Source: a virus
Taxonomy: Duplodnaviria > Heunggongvirae > Uroviricota > Caudoviricetes
Virus record (IMG/VR): IMGVR_UViG_2778261634_000009
Span: 1-38,423 of that record
Direction: 5' to 3' (one strand)
DNA length: 38,423 bases
Position numbers and translations under genes: made by a program. Below are positions 770 to 35,726 of this stretch, piece after piece (within the stretch, counting starts at the first letter, position 1; each line of letters starts with the position of its first letter). A model generated the notes under the pieces. The model saw only the letters and a list, made by a program, of their open reading frames with translations. It searched no databases and was not told the DNA's origin.

Positions 770-993
770 TCATCATCCTCATCCCAATCATCATCGTTGT
801 CGTCAACCGCCCATAACAGTGGGTTGGTACCTTTGCTTATCTGGCTTGCATATCCGCTACGTCCAAGGCTTCTCAACACGTTGTATATTTCAAACATCTC
901 AGTGCGTTCATCGCCAATGTCTAGCTGGCAGGCCAGTGCGTGACACTCTGAAGCGAGCGAGGCTAACTTTTGGAGGAATTCTTGTTTACTCAC
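766..993 (-). CDS. hypothetical protein with strongly acidic C-terminal tail
   Basis: 75-aa ORF ending WAVDDNDDDWDEDDE; overlapping start/stop junctions with both neighbours. Confidence 0.5.
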   Translation of the reverse strand: MSKQEFLQKLASLASECHALACQLDIGDERTEMFEIYNVLRSLGRSGYASQISKGTNPLLWAVDDNDDDWDEDDE

Positions 994-1796
994 GGATTCA
1001 CCTCCTGCGGTGGTTCTGGTAGCGGCATCCAGTGAGTTACGTCATCCAAGATATTTCCTGATAAATACGTGAAAGCTCTATATTTTTTGTAATCAACTGG
1101 ATTTACAACCCAGTTCCAATATGCGGCCACGATTTCACCTTGACTAAATGCCAGTAACATTTTGGTGTCTTCCGGCATTCGCTCACTACAGCTTATCCAA
1201 CCATCCGGAGTCACCGGAAGCGAGAACGGCAGCACATCTCTGTGAACAAGTTTTTGCTGTGACAGGTTATCCAGAACTTTCTGTACTGCTGCATCACCGA
1301 ATACACCAAGCGCATCTGCCATAACTCCTACAACCTGATAAGCCTCAGCGCATACCGTGGATAAACCATCCGGAATTACCGGAGAGTTGCCGGGTTCTTT
1401 AATGTGCAAGCGAGGCTCACCATCTTTTGGTTCAGGCCACTGGCGCTCCATGTTGATCTTCAATTTATCTTCCATAGCAGCGGTAATTTCAGCATCGCTG
1501 ATGCCAGCACGGCGCTGTGCATCCCACAACAGAAACTGCATATCAGCCCACTCGCTAAGATCGTCTGGTTCGGCTGCGGCTTCCAGTGCCTCTTTTGAGA
1601 GGTGTTTCAGTGGACCAATGGGGCCAACGCAGCCAAATGTGGAGTCAGACCATTTGGCATGCTCGTGGCGAATCTGTTCGCGTTCCAGTGATGCCAGTGC
1701 AATTCGTGCCAGTTCCATTTGTTCGCCACGGGTAAGCCCGTTTTCAAGCGGGGATTTAATGAACAATTCGATACGTTCTTTAGTGATAGTGCTCAT
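990..1796 (-). CDS. DUF551-domain phage protein
   Basis: 268-aa ORF; C-terminal motif WISCSERMPE...THWMPLPEPP is typical of DUF551 proteins of lambdoid early regions. Confidence 0.65.
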   Translation of the reverse strand: MSTITKERIELFIKSPLENGLTRGEQMELARIALASLEREQIRHEHAKWSDSTFGCVGPIGPLKHLSKEALEAAAEPDDLSEWADMQFLLWDAQRRAGISDAEITAAMEDKLKINMERQWPEPKDGEPRLHIKEPGNSPVIPDGLSTVCAEAYQVVGVMADALGVFGDAAVQKVLDNLSQQKLVHRDVLPFSLPVTPDGWISCSERMPEDTKMLLAFSQGEIVAAYWNWVVNPVDYKKYRAFTYLSGNILDDVTHWMPLPEPPQEVNP

Positions 1797-1797
1797 A

Positions 1798-2637
1798 TCA
1801 CTCTCCTTTGATGCGAATGCCAGCTTCAGACATCATATGCAGATACTCAACTGCATCCTGAACCCATTGACCGCCAATCCCGTAATAGCGATGCGTAATG
1901 ATGTCGATAGTTACTAACGGGTCTTGTTCGATTAACTTCCGCAGAAACTCTTCCAGGTCACCAGTGCAGTGCTTGATGACAGGAGTTTTCCCAGGATGGC
2001 GAACAACAAGAAACTGATTTCCGACTTCACGGACTTCGTTGCTTTTCAGTTCTGCAATGCGCTTCTCTGAGGCTTCCAGCTTCTCTCGCATATCGTCAAC
2101 GTACTCGACCAGAGAACCGCCAGCAGGAATTTCGCACTCCTCGACCAGTTGGAAGTAGATATCAGCTGCGGCCCGTGTGTTGCTATGCCTAGCGTCGCCC
2201 ATCTCACCTTCACGAAGAGCATCGCGTTCGGCGGTAAGATTGGCTATTTTGCTGTCTTTGCCTTCCAGCTCAACGCGCAGCTTCCCTACCGTTAGCGCAA
2301 TTTCCTCGTTCTCCTGATCGCGGCGTTTTATGTATTGCTGGTTTCTTTCCCGTTCATCCAGCAGCGCCAGTACGGTAGCCGGATTGGCTGCGGCGATGAA
2401 TTCAGCATTGGCCTGCTGTTCCATTTGGAAATCTTCATCGAAACCGCTTTCTGGATGCGCTCCTTCAATTCTGCAAATGGGAATATATCCAGCAACTTCA
2501 CGATGAATTAGCGCATCATCACCATCAAATCGGCTCTCTCCATATTCGAGCGACCACTCGCCACACGTTGCTTTTTCTGCCGCCTCTCGCAGTGCCTGAT
2601 AGTCAATCTTGCTCACTGTTTGCCTCCTTTGCGCCAC
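1798..2637 (-). CDS. Ead/Ea22-like protein
   Basis: 279-aa ORF; N-terminus [20 protein letters not shown] matches the Ea22-like family as remembered; coiled-coil-rich middle. Confidence 0.65.
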
Positions 2638-2813
2638 ATCGCATTCAGATATTTGTTTTGATTCACTGATGGAAAAGAATTTCTCTTAAGCAATTCCTCT
2701 CTCGATGGCATTGGCTTTACGCGTTGGCGAATAATCATTTCTGCCGGAAGAATGCCGGGATTGTATGCAAGTCCTCTCATGGTAAATTCCTCAGTCATTA
2801 CTGATAGCGCCAT
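2613..2813 (-). CDS. hypothetical small protein
   Basis: 66-aa ORF in the operon; overlaps the start of the Ea22-like gene by about 25 nt, start uncertain. Confidence 0.35.
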
Positions 2814-3087
2814 AGCGTGAGCGGTAATTACGCAGGCGCGGGTCGATATATTCAGGGAATTTGTCTATTGTCGCTTTTCGCAACGGTCGCATTGCTGTTT
2901 CGTTTGTTCGGTCCCTCTCATCTTTTAACGCGAGCTGTATATCGCGTCGGTACATCCGTTCTGCTTTTGTTTCTGGTGTCAGGGCAAGAAACGTGTCGAA
3001 AATGTTTTTGATATTTTCCAGCACCTCCGACTTGGAGCTACCGGAGCAGTTGCGCGGGTCATCCGCACCATATAGAGGCGCTGGCAT
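2791..3087 (-). CDS. hypothetical phage protein
   Basis: 98-aa ORF in the minus-strand early-left operon, tightly packed. Confidence 0.5.
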
Positions 3088-3110
3088 AATGGGAGCCTTA
3101 TTTTCAGTAA

Positions 3111-3698
3111 TCAGAAAGGAGGGTAATCGTTCTGGCTGTAACCATAATCATCTGCATGATTCTGGCTTACGTTTTTAGAGCGATTGTCTTTATCTTTGAG
3201 GCTGGCAACCATGTTGGCGATAGTTTCTGGTTGCTTGCCTTCCGCCTTTTCTTTAAGGGTTTGACCTGTTTGTGCAATAAACGGGATGCGTATTTCCATC
3301 TGGTAGCTGTCTGCGCCAGTCTTTTTGTTTGTGGTTAATACTTTCTGGAGCACTAACCCGATTTTCTTTCCATGAAATTCAGGTGCAACAAATTTACTGG
3401 CTGAAACCATATGTTGCGTTAATTGTCCAATCCCAGCACACCCCATCATGGCGTGAACGACATTTGCGCCAAACTTGTTTTCCGTTCCGTCATTTTTCTG
3501 AACACAGACGCTAAGATATTGGATTTTACGTCCGTCGTCGGATTCGCCAGAAAACTCAATAAATTTGGCTCCTTTTTCTGATTGCTTTAGTTCTGCTTCA
3601 GCAATGGTAATGATATGAGCGCCAGTTTCGTTAATAAAACCACCTTGCCCTGCGGTCAGTGCTGCTTCTTCGTTATAAGTAAAAATCACGTTGCTCAT
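3111..3698 (-). CDS. SSB-like / DUF669-type protein, partner of the Sak4-like ATPase
   Basis: 195-aa ORF immediately downstream of and overlapping the Sak4-like gene; C-terminus ends DDYGYSQNDYPPF, reminiscent of the acidic DDDIPF tip of SSB proteins. Confidence 0.6.
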   Translation of the reverse strand: MSNVIFTYNEEAALTAGQGGFINETGAHIITIAEAELKQSEKGAKFIEFSGESDDGRKIQYLSVCVQKNDGTENKFGANVVHAMMGCAGIGQLTQHMVSASKFVAPEFHGKKIGLVLQKVLTTNKKTGADSYQMEIRIPFIAQTGQTLKEKAEGKQPETIANMVASLKDKDNRSKNVSQNHADDYGYSQNDYPPF

Positions 3699-4375
3699 GC
3701 GGCGTTTTCCTTAATTTGATGAACATTATTGATGCCGTAGTAATCACAAACAGTGGCATCGACGAAAGAGAGATCGTTATCAATCTCATTGGAATCAAAC
3801 ATTCCCATTGGGGATTTAACAGTGTCTGCACCGTTGTTTTTCGTGGTGAAAAAGAACTGGTCATCGCGGGTAAGAGTGCGAAGAACTATAGTAAACATGC
3901 CTTCGACAGTGATTTTCTCGTCCAGCATTTTGCCGATAGTTTTCATTTTCACGCGCCCCATAGGGGTTTCTTCGGTATGTGCAAGAAAATAGACTCTCAG
4001 GTCATCAGGTGCATCCTGTGCAGCCTTAATCACCTCCCATGCGTGGCGGCCTATCTCAGTAAATTTATCAAACGATTTTTCTTCTGAGCGGCGCATAAAC
4101 TCATTGCTCATCACATACTGGAAGTCATCAACAATAACGATTCTTTTTCCGTATTCGTGAGCACGCTTAATTACAGCAACTATTACGTCCCATTTGTCAG
4201 TGGTAACTACGGTTCCTTTTTTTGCTCTGGCATCCCATGCAAGCCAGTCTTTTGATTTAAATGGTAGCGGCTTGCCTATTGGTTTTATAAGTATTGCTTC
4301 CTCTGGATTGATATTTCTCATGCTGGTTGATTTTCCGGTGCCAGATTCACCGAGTATTAATATCGCAGTTCCCAT
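3695..4375 (-). CDS. Sak4-like RecA-fold ATPase (phage single-strand annealing / recombination protein)
   Basis: 226-aa ORF with Walker A GESGTGKS near the N-terminus and hhhhDD Walker B (IVIVDD); sits where erf or bet lie in related phages. Confidence 0.8.
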   Translation of the reverse strand: MGTAILILGESGTGKSTSMRNINPEEAILIKPIGKPLPFKSKDWLAWDARAKKGTVVTTDKWDVIVAVIKRAHEYGKRIVIVDDFQYVMSNEFMRRSEEKSFDKFTEIGRHAWEVIKAAQDAPDDLRVYFLAHTEETPMGRVKMKTIGKMLDEKITVEGMFTIVLRTLTRDDQFFFTTKNNGADTVKSPMGMFDSNEIDNDLSFVDATVCDYYGINNVHQIKENAA

Positions 4376-4383
4376 AATTTGCC

Positions 4384-4584
4384 TCAGAATGGTAATTCGG
4401 ATGAGCAGGAAAGAAACTCGCGCTCATTCATGCGCTCTCTTTGTGCCTGCCATAAACAAAGTTGTTTCTTTGATTTATCTCCCGCCTTACGCCAGTAACG
4501 AGCCTCAGCAATGTGATATTCTCTTTTTAATCGACTTAACTCTGGAGTTTTCGCCAGTTCTACCGGAATCATTTTGACCTCCAT
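4384..4584 (-). CDS. hypothetical small protein
   Basis: 66-aa ORF between kil-like and Sak4-like genes. Confidence 0.45.
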   Translation of the reverse strand: MEVKMIPVELAKTPELSRLKREYHIAEARYWRKAGDKSKKQLCLWQAQRERMNEREFLSCSSELPF

Positions 4585-4682
4585 TTTCTGTAGGCTTCTA
4601 CGGCTTCACGAAACATCTTTTCATCGCCAATAAAAGTGGCGATAGTGAATTTAGTCTGGATAGCCATAAGTGTTTTATCCAT
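4569..4682 (-). CDS. kil: Kil-like host-killing (FtsZ-inhibitor) small protein; start chosen at internal Met with AGGAG upstream
   Basis: MDKTLMAIQTKFTIATFIGDEKMFREAVEAYRKW resembles lambda Kil as remembered; located directly downstream of cIII as in lambda; the ORF track extends the frame upstream to 4808. Confidence 0.45.
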   Translation of the reverse strand: MDKTLMAIQTKFTIATFIGDEKMFREAVEAYRKWRSK

Positions 4683-4815
4683 TTTTGGGAACTCCTGGCT
4701 GATTAAGTATGTCGATAAGGCGTTTCCATCCATCACGTAATTTACGTGTGATTCGTTCAAGTAAAGATTCGGAAGGGCAGCCAGCAACAGGCCACCCTGC
4801 AATGGCATATTGCAT
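4675..4815 (-). CDS. cIII: CIII protein (inhibitor of FtsH-mediated CII degradation)
   Basis: MQYAIAGWPVAGCPSESLLERITRKLRDGWKRLIDILNQPGVPKNG matches lambda CIII as remembered; AAGGAG Shine-Dalgarno 6-7 nt upstream of this ATG; the track ORF 4675..4917 is an upstream extension. Confidence 0.8.
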   Translation of the reverse strand: MQYAIAGWPVAGCPSESLLERITRKLRDGWKRLIDILNQPGVPKNG

Positions 4816-4997
4816 GGTGTGCTCCTTATTTATACATAACGAAAAACGCCTCGAGTGAAGCGTTATTGGTATGCATATAAAAAAGCCCTCACACTGGAGG
4901 GCAAAGAAGATTTCCAATAATCAGAACAAGTCGGCTCCTGTTTAGTTACGAGCGACATTGCTCCGTGTATTCACTCGTTGGAATGAATACACAGTGC

Positions 4998-5186
4998 TTA
5001 TTCGTCATGCATTTCAGGTAATTCTTCGTATTCGACGCCCCATACGTTTTCACACCAACTAACTCGCTCATATCTTTTACAGAAATCAGACCACATAACT
5101 TGTGTTCCATCATGGTTTGTTATTATTTCTGTAATATCACCAACACTAACAAAACTGGTATTAGAAGCAGTTATTTTTACTTTCAT
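4998..5186 (-). CDS. hypothetical small protein
   Basis: 62-aa ORF in AT-rich stretch of the early-left operon. Confidence 0.4.
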   Translation of the reverse strand: MKVKITASNTSFVSVGDITEIITNHDGTQVMWSDFCKRYERVSWCENVWGVEYEELPEMHDE

Positions 5187-5476
5187 TACTCATCTCCAAG
5201 AGCTTTGCTAATTGCTGACTGTGCTTTCGATACTTCATCAGGATAATGGTCATTCCAGTTTTGCTTGTATGCCTTGTTTAGCATCGCTTTCATGGCATTT
5301 AAAAGGTCAGGTGCTGCCGCTATTAGATTGGCATCTTCAATGCATTGAACTTCCTCACAGATTGCAATATACGAACGCCAGCCTGTGCCATTTTCAAGTG
5401 AGTCTGCCTGGATGATTTTAATCTCATCGCCATCCATCATTATTTCCCACTTACCTTCAGTACCTTTAAATTCCAT
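5186..5476 (-). CDS. hypothetical protein
   Basis: 96-aa ORF, early-left operon. Confidence 0.5.
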   Translation of the reverse strand: MEFKGTEGKWEIMMDGDEIKIIQADSLENGTGWRSYIAICEEVQCIEDANLIAAAPDLLNAMKAMLNKAYKQNWNDHYPDEVSKAQSAISKALGDE

Positions 5477-5515
5477 GTTAGCCTCTGTTGTTTATGCCAA
5501 AAATAAAGGCCACCA

Positions 5516-5767
5516 TCAGGCAGCCTTGTTGTAAATGTTGCAGGTATCAAGTAAGTAATTAGATGGAGCGCCATAAATTATGAATTCATCGTTTGTCGGG
5601 TCCATCTCCATCTCTTGGCCTATTGCCATTCTTGCGTCAGTGTCATCAGAGGCGAAGCATAAAACAGCCCACGCACCCATTGTTTTAAAAAGAACTGCAA
5701 TTGGCTGTGGTTTTACTGAATTTGCGTTAGCGCGAAAATCACAAATCGCACTTTCATGAAATTCCAT
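5516..5767 (-). CDS. hypothetical protein
   Basis: 83-aa ORF, early-left operon. Confidence 0.5.
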   Translation of the reverse strand: MEFHESAICDFRANANSVKPQPIAVLFKTMGAWAVLCFASDDTDARMAIGQEMEMDPTNDEFIIYGAPSNYLLDTCNIYNKAA

Positions 5768-5880
5768 ATATCACCCCTCATACAGTGGTTTGCTGCTTAA
5801 TTTAATTTTCTGGCGACCAACACAAGTCACACCCATTTCACTGCGTGGCTTGCGGTAGTAAATACGGTTATTTATGTAAT

Positions 5881-5903
5881 AAAAAACCCGCCTTAGCGGG
5901 TTA
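5881..5903 (-). terminator. intrinsic terminator immediately after the first pL gene (tL1-like)
   Basis: Minus-strand RNA reads UAA UAA CCCGC-UAAG-GCGGG UUUUUU: GC stem, 4-nt loop, U6 run, starting right at the stop codon. Confidence 0.6.
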
Positions 5904-6347
5904 TTATTTCTTTGGATTTAGCTTTTCCATGTTCTCTGCGATCGTACCTATTCTTGACCTTATTGTTGGAACATCAATTCCTCTCTGTATGTCTACATTT
6001 AAAGACATAAGCTCTCTGCTCCATCCTGCGATCGCATCGTGAAATTGCCTTGCCCTGCTTGCTTGTCTACGTCTGCTGCTTTCAAGCTCTGTAAGCATTT
6101 GCTTTGCTTCGATCTGAGACTTGCCTTGCCCAACTCCCAATGCATCGATTGCACATTGCTTCATCTCTGCTTTTATCAAAGGGTGAAGATTTTCAGCGCC
6201 AATAAAAATTACCTCGTCTATGCTTTTAAAAAGCAGAAGGCAATCAGTAACAACTTTGGTTCTTTTATCATCACACCTTACCTCTACCGAAGGTACGCCG
6301 CCATATTGCTTAACTCTCATTGCCGTATAAACTGTAGCACTCTTCAA
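5904..6347 (-). CDS. hypothetical 147-aa protein, first gene of the leftward early operon (N position), TTG start
   Basis: TTG start at 6347 preceded by AAGGAGG with 5-nt spacer; followed directly by an intrinsic terminator; no N-terminal arginine-rich motif, but an internal arginine-rich segment SSRRRQASRARQFHDAIAGW. Confidence 0.6.
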   Translation of the reverse strand: MKSATVYTAMRVKQYGGVPSVEVRCDDKRTKVVTDCLLLFKSIDEVIFIGAENLHPLIKAEMKQCAIDALGVGQGKSQIEAKQMLTELESSRRRQASRARQFHDAIAGWSRELMSLNVDIQRGIDVPTIRSRIGTIAENMEKLNPKK

Positions 6348-6504
6348 ATCAGCCTCCTTTTTCTTTTTCTATATCAAAAAGCTGCTTTGCTTTTTGTGAC
6401 TAAAAGCAAAAAAGCCTTCTCGCTAATGAGCAGCATTGCCGTTCATCCTGAACCCGCCGCGCTCCCGACGCATGGTTTAATGTCGCGCCGTTCGACATGG
6501 CTTA

Positions 6505-6538
6505 ACTATATCCAAAGCTATTATTGCTGTAAATAGCT
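6505..6538 (-). promoter_or_regulatory. OL operator and candidate pL promoter
   Basis: Inverted repeat AGCTATT-N9-AATAGCT at 6516..6538; on the minus strand a -35 TTTACA (6533..6528) and -10 TATAGT (6510..6505) with 17-bp spacing overlap it. Confidence 0.5.
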
Positions 6539-6630
6539 ATAGTTATAAAATAACTACTTTGGTTATTTAGTCATTGATATCTAATGTAATTTATTTTTCT
6601 TGTATGTGAGATTTGGTGTTTTTTGGGCAA

Positions 6631-6654
6631 TAAAAAACCCGCAAAAGCGGGTTT
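6631..6654 (-). terminator. intrinsic terminator downstream of cI
   Basis: Minus-strand hairpin AACCCGC-UUUU-GCGGGUU followed by U6, about 20 nt after the cI stop and before OL/pL. Confidence 0.65.
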
Positions 6655-6671
6655 GTTGTGGTGTGATGAGG

Positions 6672-7403
6672 TTAGTAGTCAACTACAGACCACCAGAAGA
6701 TTCTTCCGATGATCTCTATATCGCTTAGATTCTTTTCTTCTTGTGGGTATTCCAGTGAGTTAAAGCTTCTAATGCTTACCTTGTCAGGCCCTGATCGAAA
6801 GAGAATCTTAATGCGTTTCCAGCCGTTCTCGTTAATGGCGTAAATCTTTCCGTCAACTATTTTCTTATCGTTGGTGTTAACAGCAACTGTTGTTCCATCA
6901 GGAATGTTTGGCTCCATGCTGTTGCCACGAGCCGGAAAACAAACAACCCCGCTTCCATCACTGTTCGCGCCAACTCTGCGAAGGGTTGATTTGGAAAAGC
7001 GCAACATAAAGCCGTTGTGATCTTCATCAATCACCCGACCATCCCCGCATGCAAACTCAATATCTTTAAGGTAAGGAATTTCAACTTCATCACCTCTTAA
7101 AGGCGTTCCTCCATCCCATGGGTCCAAATATCCCCACGTGCTTTCATGAGGAATAGAAGATTTTGGATTATAAGGTTCAACTCCCTCATCACGCATTGGC
7201 CCAGTTCCATCGGAAAGCCATTCCGTACGAACTCCAAGCACTTTTGATATTTCAAAAAGTTTGCGCGTATTGCGTGTTTTTCCAGACGTAAGTTTCCAGA
7301 CGCTTGGCTGAGACATGCCAACAGCATTGCCAAGTGAAGCCTGAGTAAAACCAGCCTGATCCATCGCGTATGTAAGCCTTTGAGAAAAAGTATCTAGTTT
7401 CAT
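6672..7403 (-). CDS. cI: CI-type prophage repressor (N-terminal HTH, C-terminal LexA/S24-like autocleavage domain)
   Basis: 243-aa ORF; XRE-type HTH (FTQASLGNAVGMSQPSVWKL) at the N-terminus and a C-terminal S24 peptidase-like region; divergent from cro across an operator region. Confidence 0.9.
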   Translation of the reverse strand: MKLDTFSQRLTYAMDQAGFTQASLGNAVGMSQPSVWKLTSGKTRNTRKLFEISKVLGVRTEWLSDGTGPMRDEGVEPYNPKSSIPHESTWGYLDPWDGGTPLRGDEVEIPYLKDIEFACGDGRVIDEDHNGFMLRFSKSTLRRVGANSDGSGVVCFPARGNSMEPNIPDGTTVAVNTNDKKIVDGKIYAINENGWKRIKILFRSGPDKVSIRSFNSLEYPQEEKNLSDIEIIGRIFWWSVVDY

Positions 7404-7409
7404 TCGGAT

Positions 7410-7483
7410 AACCTATAGCTACAGCTATTATTAGTCAAATACCTAAAGCTATTTACTTTCTGAATAGCTTTGGCTATTATTCT
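7410..7483. promoter_or_regulatory. OR operator region with candidate pRM (leftward) and pR (rightward) promoters
   Basis: AGCTATT-N9-AATAGCT at 7447..7469 mirrors the OL site; additional GCTATTATT repeats; pR -35 TTTACT (7452..7457) / -10 TATTAT (7475..7480); pRM -35 TTGACT and -10 TAGGTT on the minus strand placing the start near the cI ATG (leaderless, as in lambda). Confidence 0.5.
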
Positions 7484-7511
7484 GATTGTGAATTCAGCAG
7501 GAGTTATTTTT

Positions 7512-7742
7512 ATGGTTAACAAGGCTATTAAAGCGGCTATTGACTCAGTAGGAAGTCAGCAAAAGTTAGCTGATGCCTGCGGTGTTAAGCAGCCGTCTGT
7601 ATGGGCTTGGTTGCATGGGAAGAAAAGGGTATCCGCTGAAAATGCCAAGCGCATTGAAATGGCTACCAATGGAAGCGTCCCTGCATACCTGATTCGCCCT
7701 GATTTATCCGCTTTGTTCCCCAATCCGAACAAAGCAGCTTAA
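7512..7742 (+). CDS. cro: Cro-type repressor
   Basis: Start at internal Met of track ORF 7470..7742, AGGAG 9 nt upstream; 76 aa with HTH (QQKLADACGVKQPSVWAW); divergent from cI. Confidence 0.8.
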   Translation: MVNKAIKAAIDSVGSQQKLADACGVKQPSVWAWLHGKKRVSAENAKRIEMATNGSVPAYLIRPDLSALFPNPNKAA

Positions 7743-7861
7743 TAAAGCAAATTTTTATACCGAACGGCCCGGTATACGGTCGGGTGCCCGGCGTGGTCAT
7801 GGATGACTGTCAATGGTGCACAATAAAAAACCAAATTATTTACCTATGGAAATAGTAAGAA

Positions 7862-8158
7862 ATGGAACAAACAAGTTACAGCAAACTATCACAGCGCGAC
7901 GTTGATCGCGCAGAAACAGATTTACTCATCAACCTGTCAACGCTTACCCAGCGCGGTCTGGCAAAGATGATTGGCTGTCATGAATCGAAGATAAGCAGAA
8001 CGGACTGGAGATTTATTGCTTCGGTCTTGTGTGCTTTCGGAATGGCATCAGACATCAGTCCGATTAGCAGGGCTTTTAAGTATGCGCTTGATGGACTCAC
8101 AAAGAAAAAACGCCCGGCGGCAACCGAGCGTTCTGAACAAATCCAGATGGAATTCTGA
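7862..8158 (+). CDS. cII: CII transcriptional activator
   Basis: 98-aa ORF whose C-terminus KKKRPAATERSEQIQMEF matches lambda CII as remembered; HTH in the middle; immediately downstream of cro. Confidence 0.85.
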   Translation: MEQTSYSKLSQRDVDRAETDLLINLSTLTQRGLAKMIGCHESKISRTDWRFIASVLCAFGMASDISPISRAFKYALDGLTKKKRPAATERSEQIQMEF

Positions 8159-8190: not shown

Positions 8191-8835
8191 ATGACATACG
8201 AAAATGACAAATTCCAGGTTCTGAAGAGCATGAAGGTGCCAGATGATTTTAAATCAAATGGCTTTGTTTATGTGCTTTCGAATGAGTGCATGCCAGGAAT
8301 TTATAAGATTGGGATGACTAAGCATTCACCAGAAGTTAGGGCTAAAGAAATTTCAGCCTCTACTGGCGTTCCTAAGCCATTTAAGGTGATAGCAGCCTTT
8401 CATTCAAATAATCCAGCATCAGATGAAAAACTCATTCATAAAGCCTTTGCAAAAGAGAGGCTTAGTGATAATCGAGAGTTTTTCAAGCTTGAAGATAATG
8501 AGCTTTCTGAATCTCTAAATGAAATAAGGGCGCTGGTTGGCCCTGAAAGAAATGGCGAGACGGCAGAATACGCAATTTACGACGCATTCATTTCTTTTCG
8601 CCATGAAAATGAGCTTGATCTTAATGAGGAGCTTATAGAGCAAGGTCTGGGTAGTGTAGTTGGTCATCTTCCTGCGGTGAAAAATTTCCTTATTCGCGCC
8701 GGAATTGATTACGCGAAGCAACTGATAAGCAAATATAACTCATCGATAGTTATTAATACAGATGGCAGTGTGGTGATGGTTAAGTCTCTTGAAGCCCAAT
8801 GCTTTGATGCGGAGGTTGGAAATGAGCCTGGCTGA
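8191..8835 (+). CDS. T5orf172 / MUG113 (GIY-YIG-like) domain protein
   Basis: 214-aa ORF; GFVYVLSNECMPGIYKIGMTKHSPEVRAKEISASTGVPKPFKV...NREFFKL fits the T5orf172 domain pattern; visibly AT-rich compared with flanking cII and O; 3' end overlaps the O start. Confidence 0.7.
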   Translation: MTYENDKFQVLKSMKVPDDFKSNGFVYVLSNECMPGIYKIGMTKHSPEVRAKEISASTGVPKPFKVIAAFHSNNPASDEKLIHKAFAKERLSDNREFFKLEDNELSESLNEIRALVGPERNGETAEYAIYDAFISFRHENELDLNEELIEQGLGSVVGHLPAVKNFLIRAGIDYAKQLISKYNSSIVINTDGSVVMVKSLEAQCFDAEVGNEPG

Positions 8836-9664
8836 AGTATTTTACCTGCCGAAGAGTGAACCTGTTGAACAGGAGCGAAGAGTGGCTGATATCGATGATG
8901 GTTACACCAGATTCGCTAACGAGCTGCTGGAAGCTATCGCAAGTGCCGATTTAACCGCTCGCCAGTTGAAAGTTATGCTGGCCTACGTCCGGAAAACATA
9001 TGGCTTCAATAAGAAAACAGATCGAATAGCCGATGAGCAAATTGCTCAGTTAACAGGACTGTCAAGGCAGAATGTTAACAAGGCTAAAAAAGAACTGATT
9101 TCAATGAATTGCCTGTTTATGGATGGAAATCAAATCGGTGTAAACAGGGAGGTATCTGCGTGGCAATTCAGCAAGTGTCTCCAAGTTAGCAACTTTGTCT
9201 CGAAGTTAGAGACAAAAAGTGTCTCCAAATTAGAGACACTCAATGTCTCGAAGTTAGAGACACACAAAAGACATTCTTTAAAGACAAAAGAAAATATTAA
9301 TAAACCCCCTATATCCCCCAAAAAAGTTTCTCAGAAGTTCGACCCGCTAGAAACAGAGTTGCCTGATTGGTTATCAGCAGAAACATGGTTGTCGTGGGTT
9401 ACCTATCGCAAGGAGATAGGTAAGTCGATCAAGTCTAAGCAAAGTGTCACTCAGGCTATCAACGTTCTATGCAGAAGTCTGGAGAAGGGATATACACCTG
9501 AAGAAATTATAAACCAGAGCATCGCCAGTGGTTGGCAGGGTATTTTTGAGCCCAAGACTCCAAAGGGGAAATCTCAACCGAGGCCGCAGCATCGAGCTAT
9601 GCAGGAAAACTTTGCCACCAAAGATTACGGACAAACTGAAATGCCTTCATGGGCGCAGGAGTGA
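8822..9664 (+). CDS. replication initiator protein O-like
   Basis: Start at internal Met (GGAGG upstream) of track ORF 8789..9664; N-terminal region LTARQLKVMLAYVRKTYGFNKK... typical of phage O N-terminal domain; iterons embedded mid-gene. Confidence 0.8.
   Translation: MSLAEVFYLPKSEPVEQERRVADIDDGYTRFANELLEAIASADLTARQLKVMLAYVRKTYGFNKKTDRIADEQIAQLTGLSRQNVNKAKKELISMNCLFMDGNQIGVNREVSAWQFSKCLQVSNFVSKLETKSVSKLETLNVSKLETHKRHSLKTKENINKPPISPKKVSQKFDPLETELPDWLSAETWLSWVTYRKEIGKSIKSKQSVTQAINVLCRSLEKGYTPEEIINQSIASGWQGIFEPKTPKGKSQPRPQHRAMQENFATKDYGQTEMPSWAQE
9177..9263. repeat. origin iterons (four about 18-bp repeats GTCTC(C/G)AA(G/A)TTAGAGACA) followed by an AT-rich stretch
   Basis: Four direct repeats at about 9177, 9197, 9221 and 9246, each with internal inverted symmetry GTCTC...GAGAC, encoding the repeated peptide SKLET; AT-rich 9264..9305 follows; lambda-type ori inside the O gene. 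Confidence 0.65.
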
Positions 9665-9666
9665 AC

Positions 9667-10512
9667 ATGACGCTGGATGAAAAGATCTCCCAACTGGAGA
9701 AAAAACTTGCAGAATTGAGTTCTCCGCCAATTGCTATCGAGCATACAGCTGTAGAAATTGGCACTGGCATCTGTGAAAAACATGGTGAGTTTGAGCAGCG
9801 TAACCGTTACTCGACTGGGCCAATTAAGTTTGCCTCAAGACCTAGCGAATGCCCGGAATGCATGAGAGATGAGCTTATTCGGCTACAGGCAGAGAAGATT
9901 AAAATCGACGAGGAATCACGTAAGCGCAATGTCGAGTTTCTGTTGAATAATCTTGATATTCCTGAACGATTCAAGGGTTGCACACTACAGAACTACGAGC
10001 CAGTCAACGACGATGCAAAGAGAGTGCTCAGGGTGTGTCAGGCATACGCCAGCAAATGGCCTGAGAGGTTACAGAAAGGCGGTGGGCTGGTTATGTGTGG
10101 AAAGCCTGGTACTGGAAAGAATCATCTTGCACTGGCTATCGCCCGGCACGCAATTACGGAACATCAAAGCTCAGCTATTTTCACAACGGCGCTGAAAATT
10201 GCCAGAGAATATAAATCAACATGGTCGAAAAACTCCACCCGCACAGAGGATGAAGTGATCCGACAGTTCACTAAACCTGACCTGCTAATTATCGATGAGG
10301 TTGGTGTGCAGTTCGGAAGCGAGGCGGAAAAGATGATCATGTTCGAAATCATCAACACCCGCTACGAGCGCATGAAGCCAACAATCCTGATTAGCAACCA
10401 GAGCAAAGATGAACTGTCTGCATTCATTGGTGAGCGTGTTATTGACAGGATGAATGATGGCGGCGGATGCACCCTTGCGTTTACATGGGATAGTTACAGG
10501 AGCAGAACGTGA
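9667..10512 (+). CDS. DnaC-like helicase loader / replication ATPase
   Basis: Walker A CGKPGTGKNHLA and Walker B LLIIDEVG; follows O directly; start at internal Met of track ORF 9649..10512. Confidence 0.8.
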   Translation: MTLDEKISQLEKKLAELSSPPIAIEHTAVEIGTGICEKHGEFEQRNRYSTGPIKFASRPSECPECMRDELIRLQAEKIKIDEESRKRNVEFLLNNLDIPERFKGCTLQNYEPVNDDAKRVLRVCQAYASKWPERLQKGGGLVMCGKPGTGKNHLALAIARHAITEHQSSAIFTTALKIAREYKSTWSKNSTRTEDEVIRQFTKPDLLIIDEVGVQFGSEAEKMIMFEIINTRYERMKPTILISNQSKDELSAFIGERVIDRMNDGGGCTLAFTWDSYRSRT

Positions 10513-18082: not shown

Positions 18083-18105
18083 AATAACGATTAAGTGAGA
18101 TGAAT

Positions 18106-18594
18106 ATGGCAGCACCAAAGGGCAACCGATTTTGGGAGGCCCGCAGTAGTCATGGGCGAAATCCTAAATTCGAATCGCCCGAGGCGCTGTGGGCTGCTTG
18201 TTGTGAATACTTCGAGTGGGTAGAAGCTAACCCGCTATGGGAGATGAAGGCATTCTCGTATCAGGGTGAAGTGATACAAGAGCCTATCGCCAAGATGCGA
18301 GCGATGACCATTACCGGCCTCACTCTGTTCATTGATGTGACGCTTGAAACATGGCGCACATATCGCCTGCGAGAAGATTTATCTGAAGTCGTTACGCGAG
18401 CAGAGCAGGTCATCTACGACCAGAAATTCTCTGGCGCAGCCGCTGACCTTCTCAACGCTAACATCATCGCCCGTGATTTGGGCCTCAAAGAGCAGTCGCA
18501 AGTTGAAGACGTGACACCTGATAAGGGAGATCGCGATAAGCGGCGCTCTCGTATCAAGGAGCTATTCAACCGTGGAACTGGACGCGATTCTTGA
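18106..18594 (+). CDS. terminase small subunit (P22 gene 3 type)
   Basis: [48 protein letters not shown]... matches P22 gp3 as remembered; 162 aa from the third in-frame ATG. Confidence 0.85.
18373..18394. promoter_or_regulatory. pac site for headful packaging, inside the small terminase gene
   Basis: GAAGATTTATCTGAAGTCGTTA matches the 22-bp P22 pac sequence as I remember it. Confidence 0.5.
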
Positions 18595-20071
18595 TAACCT
18601 GAGCGACGAAGAGCAAATCGAATTGCTCGAGCTACTCGAAGAAGAAGAGAACTACCGGAACACACACCTGCTATATGAATTTACGCCATACAGCAAACAG
18701 CGTGAGTTCATCGACGCCGGGCATGACTATCCAGAGCGCTGTTTTATGGCTGGTAACCAGCTTGGTAAGTCATTTACTGGTGCTGCTGAAGTCGCGTTTC
18801 ACCTTACCGGGCGTTATCCGGGCACAAAAGGCTATCCTGCTGATGGTAAATATGGCGGTGAGTGGAAAGGTAAGCGTTTTTATGAGCCTGTTGTCTTTTG
18901 GATTGGTGGCGAGACAAACGAGACTGTAACCAAAACGACTCAACGCATCCTGTGCGGTCGTATCGAAGAGAATGATGAGCCTGGCTACGGTTCCATACCG
19001 AAAGAAGACATCATTAGCTGGAAGAAGTCTCCTTTCTTTCCGAACCTTGTTGATCACCTTCTGGTTAAGCATCACACGGCTGATGGCGTTGAAGATGGCA
19101 TTTCAATCTGCTACTTCAAACCATACTCGCAAGGCCGCGCTCGCTGGCAGGGTGACACAATCCACGGCGTGTGGTTTGACGAAGAGCCACCATACAGCAT
19201 TTATGGCGAAGGCCTTACCCGTACCAACAAATACGGTCAATTCTCAATTCTGACGTTTACCCCGCTAATGGGGATGTCTGACGTTGTTACCAAGTTCCTG
19301 AAGAATCCCAGCAAGTCGCAGAAAGTGGTCAACATGACCATCTATGACGCTGAGCACTATACCGACGAGCAGAAAGAGCAAATCATCGCATCCTATCCCG
19401 AGCATGAGAGAGAGGCGCGTGCTCGCGGTATTCCTACGATGGGTAGCGGTCGAATCTTCCAGATACCGGAAGAGACGATTAAGTGCCAGCCGTTCGAGTG
19501 TCCTGATCACTTCTACGTAATTGGCGGGATGGATTTCGGATGGGATCACCCACAAGCGCAGGTTCAGCTTTGGTGGGATAAGGACGCAGACACAATCTAC
19601 GTTTCACGCGTGTGGAAGGCGAAAGAAAAAACAGCCGTTCAGGCATGGGGAGCTGTTAAATCATGGGCGCATAAAGTGCCAACAGCATGGCCTCATGACG
19701 GAAACCAGCACGAGAAGGGCGGCGGTGAGCAGCTTAAAGGGCAGTACGCGGACGCTGGTTTTATGATGTTGCAGGAGCATGCGACATGGCCTGATGGCGG
19801 TAATGCTGTTGAGCCTGGCATCACTGAATTGCGAGACATGATGCTCGATGGTCGCTTCAAAGTATTCAACACCTGTGAGCCATTCTTTGAGGAGTTCCGC
19901 CTCTATCACCGTGATGAAAACGGGAAGATCGTCAAGCTTAACGACGACGTTCTCTCAGCCGTTCGCTATGCATACATGATGCGCCGCTTCGCCAAAATGA
20001 TGCGCGACATCAAAAAACCAAAAGAGAAAAAGATACCAGCCCCAATCAGGCCCATCGCACGGAGAACTTAA
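18572..20071 (+). CDS. terminase large subunit (P22 gene 2 type)
   Basis: 499-aa ORF, same length as P22 gp2; ATPase Walker A-like GNQLGKS and nuclease-domain acidic residues; overlaps small-subunit gene. Confidence 0.9.
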
Positions 20072-25572: not shown

Positions 25573-26991
25573 ATGCCGATTCAGCAACTTCCGCTTATGA
25601 AAGGTGTCGGCAAAGACTTCCGAAACGCCGACTATATCGACTATCTGCCAGTGAATATGCTGGCAACCCCCAAAGAAATCCTTAACAGCAGCGGATATCT
25701 TCGTTCATTCCCGGGCATTGCCAAACGTTCTGATGTGAACGGCGTATCGCGCGGCGTCGAGTACAACATGGCGCAGAGTGCTGTTTATCGCGTGTGTGGC
25801 AGCAAGTTGTATAAGGGCGAAAGCGAAGTCGGTGACGTCGCCGGAAGTGGTCGCGTATCAATGGCGCATGGTCGAACATCTCAGGCTGTAGGCGTTAATG
25901 GTCAACTGGTCGAGTATCGCTATGATGGCACGGTTAAAACAGTCTCAAACTGGCCTACAGACAGCGGATTCACGCAGTATGAGTTAGGTTCGGTTCGTGA
26001 CATTACGCGCTTACGTGGGCGTTATGCGTGGTCAAAAGACGGCACTGATTCATGGTTTATCACTGACCTTGGAGATGAATCGCACCCTGACCGATACAGC
26101 GCACAATATCGCGCAGAATCGCAGCCTGACGGCATCATCGGCATCGGAACATGGCGAGACTTCATCGTCTGCTTTGGTTCATCGACGATTGAATATTTTT
26201 CCCTGACTGGTGCAACCACTGTTGGTGCCGCTTTGTATGTCGCCCAGCCATCGTTGATGGTGCAAAAAGGAATCGCCGGAACCTACTGCAAAACGCCGTT
26301 TGCTGATTCGTATGCGTTCATCAGCAATCCGGCAACAGGTGCGCCGTCTGTTTACATCATCGGCTCCGGTCAGGTATCACCAATCGCCAGCGCGAGCATT
26401 GAGAAAATACTACGCTCCTACACTGCTGATGAACTGGCTGATGGCGTGATGGAATCGTTGCGGTTTGATGCTCATGAGTTGCTGATTATTCACCTGCCGC
26501 GCCATGTTCTTGTTTACGACGCATCTTCAAGCGCCAATGGTCCGCAATGGTGTGTGCTGAAAACAGGCTTGTATGACGATGTGTACCGCGCTATCGACTT
26601 CATTTACGAAGGCAATCAGATAACGTGTGGCGATAAGCTGGAATCGGTGACCGGGAAATTGCAATTCGATATATCTTCACAATACGAAAAACAACAAGAG
26701 CATATTTTATATTCCCCTCTAATAAAGGCTGATAACGTTTTAATAAATGACCTTGAATTAGAAACATCTGGCGGCGTGTGTGATAGAATAGATAGAATAT
26801 TTATATCAGCCACTACAGATGGGATTAATTACGGTCGTGAGCAAATGGTCGTATTACAAAAACCATTTGTATATGACAATCGCGTTTTATGGCGAAAAGT
26901 TGGTCGAGTTAGACGTCTCATTGGATTTAAATTCAGAGTTATTGCAAAAGGTCCTGTTACATTATCAGGCCTTTCTATTCGTGTAACATAA
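25573..26991 (+). CDS. tail hub protein (P22 gene 10 type)
   Basis: 472-aa ORF, same length as P22 gp10, following gene 4; last roughly 110 codons visibly AT-rich. Confidence 0.8.
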   Translation: MPIQQLPLMKGVGKDFRNADYIDYLPVNMLATPKEILNSSGYLRSFPGIAKRSDVNGVSRGVEYNMAQSAVYRVCGSKLYKGESEVGDVAGSGRVSMAHGRTSQAVGVNGQLVEYRYDGTVKTVSNWPTDSGFTQYELGSVRDITRLRGRYAWSKDGTDSWFITDLGDESHPDRYSAQYRAESQPDGIIGIGTWRDFIVCFGSSTIEYFSLTGATTVGAALYVAQPSLMVQKGIAGTYCKTPFADSYAFISNPATGAPSVYIIGSGQVSPIASASIEKILRSYTADELADGVMESLRFDAHELLIIHLPRHVLVYDASSSANGPQWCVLKTGLYDDVYRAIDFIYEGNQITCGDKLESVTGKLQFDISSQYEKQQEHILYSPLIKADNVLINDLELETSGGVCDRIDRIFISATTDGINYGREQMVVLQKPFVYDNRVLWRKVGRVRRLIGFKFRVIAKGPVTLSGLSIRVT

Positions 26992-27012
26992 ATCGAAACT
27001 CAAGGAGTAGAT

Positions 27013-27546
27013 ATGTTAAGTGAAAACGCAAAAGATATCGAAGGATATGAAGGACTGTACGCCATCACTAATGATGGTAGAGTTTACTCGCATTCAAGAG
27101 TAAATTTGAGGGGGCGTCTTATTAAGGGGAGGTGGCTGAAGCATAATCATAACGTAAATGGATATAAGTATGTGTGCTTATATAAGGATGGCGTAAAAAA
27201 GAACATACTAATACATAAGCTTGTTGCATCTCACTTTGTCGGTGGATTTGCTGAAGGGTTACAGGTTAATCATATAGATGGTGATAAGTATAATAATAAC
27301 TATCTAAATCTTGAATGGGTTACTCCATCAGGAAACATCTCACACTCATATGGATTGGAATCGAGAGGTAATGTAAAAGGAGAAAGGAATGGTAATTCTA
27401 AAATATCTAATGATGATGTCATAAAGATAAAAGAAATGGTTGCCAATGGATTTCCTCAGTGTGAAGTTGCTAAATTATTTGGAATTCACAATTCAAAGGT
27501 TAGTAGAATTGTAAATGGCAAGGCATGGAGGCATGTTAATGGCTGA
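27013..27546 (+). CDS. HNH homing endonuclease (NUMOD4 N-terminal motif plus HNH_3 core, C-terminal HTH-like region)
   Basis: [16 protein letters not shown] is the NUMOD4 signature; [11 protein letters not shown]...[20 protein letters not shown] is the HNH core; AT-rich; inserted between tail genes 10 and 26. Confidence 0.8.
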
Positions 27547-28492
27547 TTCGAATCTCAATGTGCCGGTAATCATTCAGGCTACACGGCTCGATACATCAAT
27601 ACTTCCACGCAATATCTTCTCTCAGTCGTATCTGCTTTACGTTATTGCACAGGGCACTGATGTTGGTAACGTAGCTAACAAGGCCAACGAGGCCGGACAG
27701 GGCGCTTATGACGCACAAGTCAGGAACGATGAGCAGGATGTCACCCTTGCAGACCATGAATCCAGAATTGAAGCTGCTGAAGCAACTATCATCAATCATG
27801 AACATAGAATTGCAGCAGCGGAAAGCACTCTTGCAGATCATGAAACAAGGATTACGGCTGCTGAAACAGAGCTGGCTGATCACGAGACGCGAATTGCTGC
27901 CAATGAATCTGAGTTAGCAGATCATGATGCGCGCATAACTCAGAATACAACCGATATCGACGCACTTGATACCAGGCTCACAGCGGCAGAGGGGAGTATT
28001 TCGACGCTACAAAGCACAGTTGGTGATCACTCAACAAGAATATCTGCGCTTGAGTATGCCACCACGCGCAAGAAATCAGAGGTTGTTTACTCAGGGGTAT
28101 CGGTAACAATTCCGACAGCGCCTACCAACCTTGTTAGCCTGCTGAAAACGCTCACGCCGTCATCCGGCACGTTGGCACCATTCTTCGACACCGTTAACAA
28201 CAAGATGGTTGTGTTCAACGAGAACAAAACCTTGTTCTTCAAGCTGTCGATTGTCGGGACGTGGCCCAGCGGAACCGCCAACAGGTCAATGCAGCTAACC
28301 TTTTCCGGCTCTGTTCCTGACACGTTGGTCAGCAGTCGTAATGCGGCGACAACAACCGACAACATCCTGTTAGCTACGTTCTTCAGCGTGGATAAAGACG
28401 GATTTCTTGCCACAAATGGCAGTACGTTAACCATTCAGTCAAATGGGGCGACGTTTACTGCCACAACCATCAAGATAATCGCGGAGCAGTGA
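27539..28492 (+). CDS. tail needle (P22 gene 26 type) with divergent C-terminal knob-like domain
   Basis: N-terminus [43 protein letters not shown] matches P22 gp26; central heptad repeats ADHE(S/T)RI; C-terminal about 120 aa unlike P22, Thr/Ser-rich beta-type sequence; start overlaps HNH stop. Confidence 0.85.
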
Positions 28493-33690: not shown

Positions 33691-34227
33691 TCAAACAACC
33701 CACCAGTTTGCCTGATTGGATACCAGCCTTGCAGTTTTTATGGAATTAATTATGCCATGCTCAAGAGCCTTGTTAGCATCCAAAATGGTCGAGTCTGCTA
33801 TCAGGGATGCCCACCTAATATGGGTTCCGATGTCGATATTGAACGTCTCAACGAAGCGATCAAGATCGTTATCGAGGCATTTCCCGTACTCTCTCAATCT
33901 GGCATGGTCGGCGGCTGGGGTGGCAAAGCCCCATAATAGAGGATGTAACAGGAATCTTGATAATGGGTTTGCGAAACGCTCTGAGCCAGCCAGGAAAACG
34001 ATATTAGCTATGGATTCAACATTGCTTATGTTGTGAGTTCTAACGGTAACAGGGAGTGACTTAAGAAAGTTATACGCAGTAAAACCAGCGGCAGTTTCCC
34101 CTCCCTGACTTGATATATGGATATTTAATTCAGTTGCGCCTTGAGATAATGCGGTGAGACAGTGGTTCTGAAGTTGCCCAACAGTGGCGGTGTTAACGGG
34201 GCATAAGAAATGAATTGTGTGCAGCAT
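33691..34227 (-). CDS. ClpP-family (S14) serine protease-like protein, stand-alone
   Basis: 178-aa ORF; IHISSQGGETAAGFTAY and SIANIVFLAGSERFANPLSRFLLHPLLWG align by eye with E. coli ClpP YINSPGGVITAGMSIY and [31 protein letters not shown], conserving the catalytic Ser and His positions; start codon overlaps the mnt stop (TAATG). Confidence 0.75.
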   Translation of the reverse strand: MLHTIHFLCPVNTATVGQLQNHCLTALSQGATELNIHISSQGGETAAGFTAYNFLKSLPVTVRTHNISNVESIANIVFLAGSERFANPLSRFLLHPLLWGFATPAADHARLREYGKCLDNDLDRFVETFNIDIGTHIRWASLIADSTILDANKALEHGIINSIKTARLVSNQANWWVV

Positions 34228-34733: not shown

Positions 34734-34802
34734 AGTTGAAGCCCCAACTGCTGGAACAGTCAGGGCTTCGGTATCGTAAAACCACGCATAGGAATTAACG
34801 AC

Positions 34803-35726
34803 ATGAAAAGTATAGCAACAGCAGTATCTACTATCAATGTACCATTCCACGGCGCAGAGCTTTATGTTGTCAATCACAACGGCGAACCGTATACCCCAAT
34901 GAAACCTATCGTTGAGGGAATGGGTATGGATTGGGCTTCACAGTTTACAAAGTTAAAACAAAGATTTGCTAAAGGTATTGTGGAAATCGCAATACCTTCA
35001 GTTGGCGGTGTGCAGACCATGATTTGCCTTGCTTTACGTAAACTGAATGGCTGGTTGCAAACCATCAGCCCTAACAAAGTCCGCCCTGAAATCCGCGACA
35101 ATGTAATCCAGTATCAAGAAGAGTGTGACGATGTGCTATACGAGTACTGGACTAAAGGCCATGTAGTTAACCCACGCAAAGCTAAAAAGGCGTTGCCTGG
35201 TAAAATCACTACTGAACAGCAGGAAGCCATTAAACAACTCGTCATGAGTCGCGGTCAGTCTCTGCCAAAAGAAAAACAGGCTAAGGCGATGATCACCATG
35301 TGGTCGTCACTGAAATCCCATTTTGGATGTTCGTACAAAGAAATCAGTGAGGAGCAGTTTACCGAAGCACTGTCACTTGCAGCTCGAGTTCCGCTTGAAG
35401 GTGAGTTCATCGGCAAACAAGAGAAGAAAACCAACGAGCTTTCTGCAAAAGAAGCAAACAGCCTTGTATGGTTATGGGATTATGCCAACCGCTCACAGGC
35501 ATTATTCCGCGAACTGTATCCGGCGCTAAAACAAATTCAATCGAACTATTCCGGCAGATGTCATGACTGCGGTTATGAGTTCTCCCGTATTATCGATATA
35601 GCGAGAGATGTTTTAATCAATCACACACGAGATGTTGATATCAATGAGCCAGACGGACCAACGAATCTTTCCGCATGGATGAGACTTAAGAATAAAGAAT
35701 TACCTCCTTCAGTTCATAACTACTGA
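34803..35726 (+). CDS. ant: antirepressor Ant
   Basis: 307-aa ORF immediately downstream of arc, size and position as P22 Ant. Confidence 0.85.
   Translation: MKSIATAVSTINVPFHGAELYVVNHNGEPYTPMKPIVEGMGMDWASQFTKLKQRFAKGIVEIAIPSVGGVQTMICLALRKLNGWLQTISPNKVRPEIRDNVIQYQEECDDVLYEYWTKGHVVNPRKAKKALPGKITTEQQEAIKQLVMSRGQSLPKEKQAKAMITMWSSLKSHFGCSYKEISEEQFTEALSLAARVPLEGEFIGKQEKKTNELSAKEANSLVWLWDYANRSQALFRELYPALKQIQSNYSGRCHDCGYEFSRIIDIARDVLINHTRDVDINEPDGPTNLSAWMRLKNKELPPSVHNY

Follow-up and report, generated by a model that had tools for sequence, protein, structure and literature searches.

An HK620-type Sak4/SSB gene pair beside a divergent abc2 allele in a mosaic P22-like phage genome

The closest described relative of the locus studied here is the recombination region of phage HK620, in which the genes follow each other in the order hkaM-hkaL(sak4)-hkaK(ssb)-hkaJ(abc2) (Clark 2001; Lopes 2010; Hutinet 2018, PMC5928155). 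Two of these genes were at first mis-annotated, hkaK as abc1 and hkaL as erf (PMC5928155). The HK620 Sak4 protein needs ATP both to bind ssDNA and to act as a single-strand annealing protein (Hutinet et al. 2018, PMC5928155). HkaK, on its part, is a true ssDNA-binding protein, apparently a tetramer, with an affinity for ssDNA that is about 4-fold below that of E. coli SSB (PMC5928155). It strongly stimulates Sak4 annealing in vitro and also recombineering in vivo: relative to the empty vector, sak4 alone gives a 15-fold effect and sak4 with ssb one of about 210-fold, and the SSB alone gives no recombineering (PMC5928155). [quoted passage not shown] For oligo recombineering, hkaM is dispensable and abc2 is without effect, and the HK620 proteins also promote low-level recombination after conjugation (PMC5928155). 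The same study reports an HHsearch homology of the HK620 SSB to gp45 of phage N4, and a frequency of sak4-ssb pairing of up to 80% is given in the literature (PMC5928155).

In this study, we analyse a gene pair of this kind in a stretch of viral DNA of 38,423 nucleotides, referred to below as the window. A first-pass annotation of this DNA had proposed a Sak4-type ATPase with an SSB-like partner, located downstream of cIII and kil and together making up a functional recombination system. Both open reading frames lie on the minus strand, exactly where that annotation had placed them, and the pair has the following features.

3695..4375, minus strand: sak4 (hkaL allele), RecA-core-only ATPase by its predicted fold, 226 aa, putative single-strand annealing role
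3111..3698, minus strand: ssb (hkaK allele), atypical phage SSB of 195 aa, DUF669 / N4 gp45-like type ('SSB-2')
4328..4351, minus strand: Walker A motif GESGTGKS, Sak4 residues 9-16, read from the sequence
4124..4141, minus strand: Walker B motif IVIVDD, Sak4 residues 79-84, read from the sequence
3695..3698, minus strand: ATGA overlap of the sak4 stop and the ssb start, the sequence reading ...gccgcATGAgcaac
3279..3623, minus strand: predicted OB-fold core of the SSB, approximately residues 26-140
3114..3131, minus strand: NDYPPF tip of the SSB, putative Sak4-recruiting element, residues 190-195, the same tip as in HK620

The 226-residue Sak4 product starts with MGTAILILGESGTGKS, and the 195-residue SSB product closes with ...HADDYGYSQNDYPPF, that is, with the final letters DDYGYSQNDYPPF. 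The four nucleotides ATGA are common to the sak4 stop and the ssb start, an overlap which suggests that the translation of the two genes is coupled.

The two proteins were found to be almost the same as those of HK620, Sak4 being identical to HkaL at 224 of 226 residues and the SSB to HkaK at 193 of 195, with DNA identities of 98.4% for sak4 and 98.5% for ssb. The ratio of synonymous to non-synonymous changes is 9:2 in sak4 and 7:2 in ssb. The substitutions, T5I and E43D in Sak4 and T33A and V153E in the SSB, all spare the Walker motifs and the tip; each falls at a column that varies within the family, or at one where the residue of the window is the consensus. The mostly synonymous changes, together with profile matches at 2.3e-108 and 5.5e-66 (see below), indicate that sak4 and ssb are real genes and not chance ORFs. 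The proposal of a functional Sak4/SSB system is supported through the HK620 proteins, which are 99% identical, and the recombineering assay by which it could be checked has already been published for the HK620 pair (PMC5928155), with the outcome that had been predicted. For the alleles of the window, an annealing activity that the SSB stimulates by way of its tip would then follow by transfer from the HK620 proteins, each of which has two residues changed.

Turning to the families of the two proteins, the ATPase matches PHROG 2872 (phrog_2872, 'Sak4-like ssDNA annealing protein') at 2.3e-108 over profile positions 1-218 of 219, and it scores 31.9 bits in Pfam AAA_24, above the gathering score of 27. 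Residues G9, S11, G12, G14 and K15 are invariant in 33 homologues, and so are D83 and D84, the former also across nine distant phage Sak4 proteins. When the PDB sequences were searched with HMMER, either with the single sequence (phmmer) or with a 9-sequence profile (hmmsearch), Sak4 gave generic P-loop matches only. The corresponding searches with the partner (phmmer; 7-sequence profile) returned no SSB, only chance-level matches such as annexin. Because these searches were uninformative, the structures of both proteins were predicted. [quoted passage not shown] Profiles and predicted fold thus agree with the proposed Sak4-type RecA-fold ATPase. A scan of all four module proteins against NCBIfam gave none above the cut-offs.

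The partner matches PHROG 743 (phrog_743, 'single strand DNA binding protein') at 5.5e-66. Its relation to DUF669, which had been suggested along with an SSB family, is of a more indirect kind. The phage SSB family was indeed recovered, but Pfam gave zero direct match to DUF669 (PF05037) or to any other entry, even at E <= 10, and the tie goes solely via the NCBI name of the homologues, 'DUF669 domain-containing', and via structural matches. For the canonical bacterial SSB family, PF00436, there is no Pfam or NCBIfam match either, and the protein is for this reason not filed there; what it shares with that family is only the SSB-like working and the fold class.

The SSB model consists of strands at residues 26-39, 45-53, 58-67, 92-99, 112-123 and 130-140 and a helix at 75-88, with pLDDT values in the core of mostly 82-95. 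Compared by Foldseek with predicted viral structures, it matches DUF669 proteins at 1.4e-12 and the SSBs of N4-like phages at 3.5e-8 and 6e-8. We favour an OB fold for this protein, on the basis of a predicted model and not of an experiment. The prediction bears on a small disagreement in the literature, namely whether HkaK is related to SSBs or not. The SSB-like nature of the partner is in any case borne out by the PHROG profile and the predicted fold. Residues 177-195 have pLDDT values below 50 and are predicted to form a disordered tail. The terminal F is invariant in 31 homologues, and the C-termini found among homologues are DDIPF, DLPF or DAPF, several closing with DDIPF as E. coli SSB does. 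The likeness of the C-terminus to an SSB tail, which had been pointed out previously, is hence well founded, NDYPPF being the HK620 tip with a proven role and the tail a predicted disordered one.

The pairing was followed in a sample of eight phage Sak4 homologues with identities from 70% to 27%. In six of the eight, a homologue of the partner comes directly after sak4; these are Hafnia, Vibrio, Pseudomonas, Aeromonas, Ruminococcus and N4-like Roseovarius phages. In the crAss-like and Fusobacterium phages of the sample, no partner homologue was found directly after sak4. Across the six paired phages the partner identities lie between 54% and 18%, and in four of them an acidic-x-P-F motif closes the partner protein or stops one residue short of its end. 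Hafnia phage Meifeng has the same overlap arrangement of sak4 and ssb. Of 5426 complete E. coli genomes, 195 carry the 1265-bp pair; all of these copies are chromosomal, and most are 95-99% identical. The usual RefSeq labels are 'ATP-binding protein' for one gene and 'hypothetical' or 'DUF669' protein for the other. The gene identities, the Walker motifs, the tip, the conserved pairing and, as predictions, the two folds are established for the window itself.

The genes on the two sides of the pair are the following.

2791..3087, minus strand: abc2, anti-RecBCD protein 2, 98 aa, 23 nt downstream of ssb, same module
4384..4572, minus strand: hkaM orphan, 62 aa, PHROG 1723 at 1.5e-32, at the position of P22 arf
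4569..4682, minus strand: kil, Pfam Lambda_Kil at 5.7e-21, 97% nucleotide identity to HK620 kil, pL operon neighbour
4675-4815, minus strand: cIII ORF, beginning MQYAIAGWPVAG..., 96.5% nucleotide identity to HK620 cIII
4675..4828, minus strand: cIII with its 5' thermoregulator RNA, Rfam RF01804 at 4770-4828, 88.5 bits

The matches to Lambda_Kil and to the cIII thermoregulator confirm the cIII-kil context upstream of the pair. Between kil and the pair lies hkaM, which precedes sak4 and belongs to the block; its product is identical to HkaM at 60 of 62 residues, its ATG overlaps the kil stop (ATGA) and a GGAGG is found upstream of it. On the other side, Abc2 is recognized by Pfam PF11043 (1.5e-35, positions 1-97 of 97) and by PHROG 656 (5.2e-44). 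The first-pass annotation had described the module as being neither of the Erf/Abc nor of the Red type. The second half of this statement stands, as there is no Red-beta, Exo or Gam among the ten larger ORFs of the leftward operon. The first half is right in that Erf, Arf and Abc1 are absent, but the abc2 gene is located directly downstream of ssb, beyond the coordinates which that annotation had given. In Pfam and PHROGs, the ten larger ORFs from 990 to 6347 have no match to Erf, RecT, Red-beta, Exo or Gam.

The abc2 gene differs from its neighbours in its identity to HK620. The 23-nt spacer between ssb and abc2 is 100% identical to that of HK620, whereas Abc2 itself has only 62% protein identity and abc2 74% DNA identity. 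With spacer and ssb near-identical to HK620 and abc2 divergent, the start of abc2 marks a sharp mosaic joint. The same combination of alleles is present at 97.6-97.9% identity in many Stx1a-/Stx2a-converting phages, in TL-2011a and in JEP4.

Two further genes of the leftward region can be mentioned. The gene at 5904-6347 (minus strand, 147 aa, phrog_13686 at 4.1e-92) is the first one downstream of a pL-like promoter (6533-6505) and occupies the usual position of lambdoid N; no N-like ORF was seen. Its homologues are in six phage records, among them Wanchaivirus PDP110P2, Salmonella MG40 and Erwinia phiEt88, all unannotated or 'hypothetical', and the product may be an alternative antiterminator or early regulator. 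The other one, at 990-1796 (minus strand), encodes a 268-aa protein in which a dATP/dGTP pyrophosphohydrolase domain (PF04447, 5.2e-42) is fused to DUF551 (2e-21), and belongs to the ea region, with an Ead/Ea22-like gene (1798-2637) upstream of it.

A scan of 2500-8000 for promoters and terminators gave no promoter-like site on the coding strand within the module or just ahead of it. This fits, but does not prove, a transcription of the module by read-through from pL. Chi (GCTGGTGG) is absent from both strands of the whole 38.4-kb window, a count which is uninformative since only about 1.2 occurrences are expected by chance in 38 kb. It does not conflict with the published observation that Chi is scarce in lambdoid phages which carry Rec modules and anti-RecBCD genes (PMC12315714).

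We consider it very probable (about 93%) that the locus is a homologous-recombination module of the HK620 type and belongs to an E. coli phage or prophage with a mosaic, P22-like (Lederbergvirus) genome. In the mechanism we propose, the module would be expressed as part of a leftward early pL operon with the order cIII, kil, hkaM, sak4, ssb, abc2. The phage SSB, an atypical OB-fold protein and reportedly a tetramer, would coat ssDNA, and the flexible NDYPPF tip of the DNA-bound SSB would recruit Sak4. The latter, a RecA-core-only ATPase, would with ATP bind the ssDNA and anneal complementary strands. Abc2, whose function is taken from the literature, would bind and redirect the host RecBCD, such that the resection is carried out by the host enzyme. 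An Abc2-redirected RecBCD that supplies end resection would also explain why the module has no nuclease of its own. In our inference the pair would cooperate with Abc2-modified RecBCD and have a role in phage growth.

One way to extend the HK620-type reading is to take all four genes as a unit acting in the recombination of dsDNA ends, in which the divergent Abc2, at 62% identity to the HK620/P22 type, and the orphan HkaM would have roles that are invisible to oligo recombineering. Abc2-modified RecBCD might in that case hand the resected ssDNA directly to SSB-Sak4, and the swap of the abc2 allele might be an adaptation to host RecBCD variants or defence systems. We put this forward tentatively, as a possibility that is more likely wrong than right.

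It is also conceivable that the main task of the pair in vivo is replication, in the form of recombination-dependent replication, fork restart or the switch from theta to rolling circle, with annealing as the means. The Rec modules of lambdoid phages have been linked to the theta-to-sigma switch (PMC12315714), and in N4-like and crAss-like phages sak4 is found among replication genes, with an N4 gp43-like gene upstream and helicase and primase genes as neighbours. N4 gp45, the relative of the SSB, is furthermore a replication protein. In the window, however, the pair is found where pL operons have their recombination genes, a long way from replication (O and DnaC-like genes, 8789-10512), and what the HK620 proteins promote is recombineering and, at a low level, recombination following conjugation. 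We judge this reading unlikely, and it is in any case more of an extension of the main explanation than a true alternative to it.

Much less probable, in our opinion, is a scenario in which the SSB acts mainly by competing for, or hijacking, the partners of the host SSB through its tip, or works as a transcription factor in the manner of N4 gp45, and lies next to sak4 only incidentally. The tip does resemble DDDIPF of E. coli SSB, with some homologues ending exactly in DDIPF; N4 gp45 is a relative of the protein; and SSB_HK620 reportedly stimulates RecA strand exchange in vitro (PMC5928155). In HK620, on the other hand, it is for the binding of Sak4 to SSB-coated ssDNA that the tip is required, and the SSB alone does not give recombineering (PMC5928155). 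The ATGA overlap and the adjacency of sak4 and ssb that is conserved in distant phages speak for a dedicated pair.

Finally, there is the idea that the ATPase comes from another, unrelated P-loop family, for instance the packaging ATPases or helicase loaders, and that its neighbour has no OB fold. The generic P-loop matches in the PDB and the empty NCBIfam scan would agree with it, but its probability is negligible in view of the Sak4-like PHROG match at 2.3e-108 and the AAA_24 profile, the identity to HK620, the structural matches to Sak4, RecA and RAD51, the OB-fold model of the partner, and the separate locations of the terminase genes (18100-20071) and the DnaC-like loader (9649-10512).

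The window as a whole represents a mosaic P22-like phage. Its left half is covered to about 40% each by N7, HK620 and JEP4, and its right half to about one half each by Louie, IME10 and UPF_BP1. The replication module at 8789-10512 (plus strand) consists of an O-like initiator and a DnaC/IstB-like helicase loader (PF01695, 1.8e-18). HK620 has instead a DnaB-type P helicase, which illustrates the mosaicism around the HK620-like recombination block. Located between cII (7862-8158) and O (8789-9664) is a gene at 8191-8835 (plus strand, 214 aa) with a T5orf172/MUG113 (GIY-YIG-like) domain (1.4e-15 and 5.7e-16), the 3' end of which overlaps O. No tRNA genes were found in the window.

In the right half, an HNH homing-endonuclease ORF is present at 27013-27546 (plus strand; NUMOD4 5.1e-13 and HNH_3 5.1e-10), between a gene-10-like head-closure gene (25573-26991) and an Sf6-type tail-needle gene (27515-28492). 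Relative to HK620 this region has about 550 extra bases (26892 to 27537 in the window vs 27835 to 27932 in HK620), the GC content goes down to 0.41 in 27001-28000, and the ORF looks like a mobile endonuclease that has been inserted into the structural operon. A ClpP-like serine protease ORF (PF00574, 4.3e-12) at 33691-34227, on the minus strand and thus opposite to its surroundings, is found on the way from the DNA-injection genes to the ant/sar immunity-I region, and is an unusual cargo for a P22-like phage. This is followed by the sar antisense RNA at 34734-34801 (minus strand; Rfam RF00262, 81.2 bits), directly upstream of ant and antisense to its leader, and by the gene for the P22-type antirepressor Ant at 34803-35726 (plus strand; P22_AR_N 2.8e-44). 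As both sar and ant are present, the window has kept an intact immI, of which only annotated remnants exist in HK620.

The gene pair is already known and well characterised, and the finding is in this sense ordinary. As a discovery it carries little weight, the pair being the published model for Sak4-type recombinases and common, also in many Stx-converting phages. A practical consequence is that the many database records still labelled 'ATP-binding protein', 'DNA binding ATPase' or 'hypothetical/DUF669 protein' can safely be renamed to Sak4 annealase and cognate phage SSB.

Among the known systems, the Sak4 of a staphylococcal phage (ORF016; PDB 8rc5, with the SaPI2 Stl repressor; PMC11846896) has only 14% identity to Sak4 of the window. 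Its host is Gram-positive, and it is known as both inducer and target of a phage satellite, a role that is not known for the E. coli protein. On the SSB side, E. coli SSB (PF00436) has no detectable sequence-profile similarity to the protein of the window, and the tips read DDDIPF and NDYPPF, respectively; PrgE of plasmid pCF10 (PDB 8s4s; PMC11137577) is listed alongside E. coli SSB as a comparison. Coliphage N4 (gp44/gp45) and the N4-like phages have a Sak4-like ATPase followed by an atypical SSB, in the same order as in the window. Their pair is 18-28% identical to that of the window, their SSB is longer, the one sampled does not have the ...PF tip, and the genes are part of a replication cluster of a lytic phage and not of a lambdoid pL operon.

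The arf-erf-abc1-abc2 genes of P22 and gam-bet-exo of lambda fill the same early leftward slot after cIII-kil and serve the same general purpose, and Abc2 is common to P22 and the window. The annealing protein is however of a different kind, RecA-fold and ATP-dependent in the window and Rad52-like in P22 (Erf) and lambda (Beta). The window has, in addition, a dedicated SSB in place of Abc1, and neither a phage exonuclease nor Gam. HK620, in turn, differs from the window in its abc2 allele and in the immunity and replication genes, and accounts for only the 40% or so of the left half given above. Within the module itself the correspondence is very close: the HK620 record (AF335538) has hkaJ, hkaK, hkaL and hkaM in identical order and with identical lengths, the two central genes likewise overlap by ATGA (hkaL 5065-5745, hkaK 4481-5068), and the cIII-kil context upstream is common to both.
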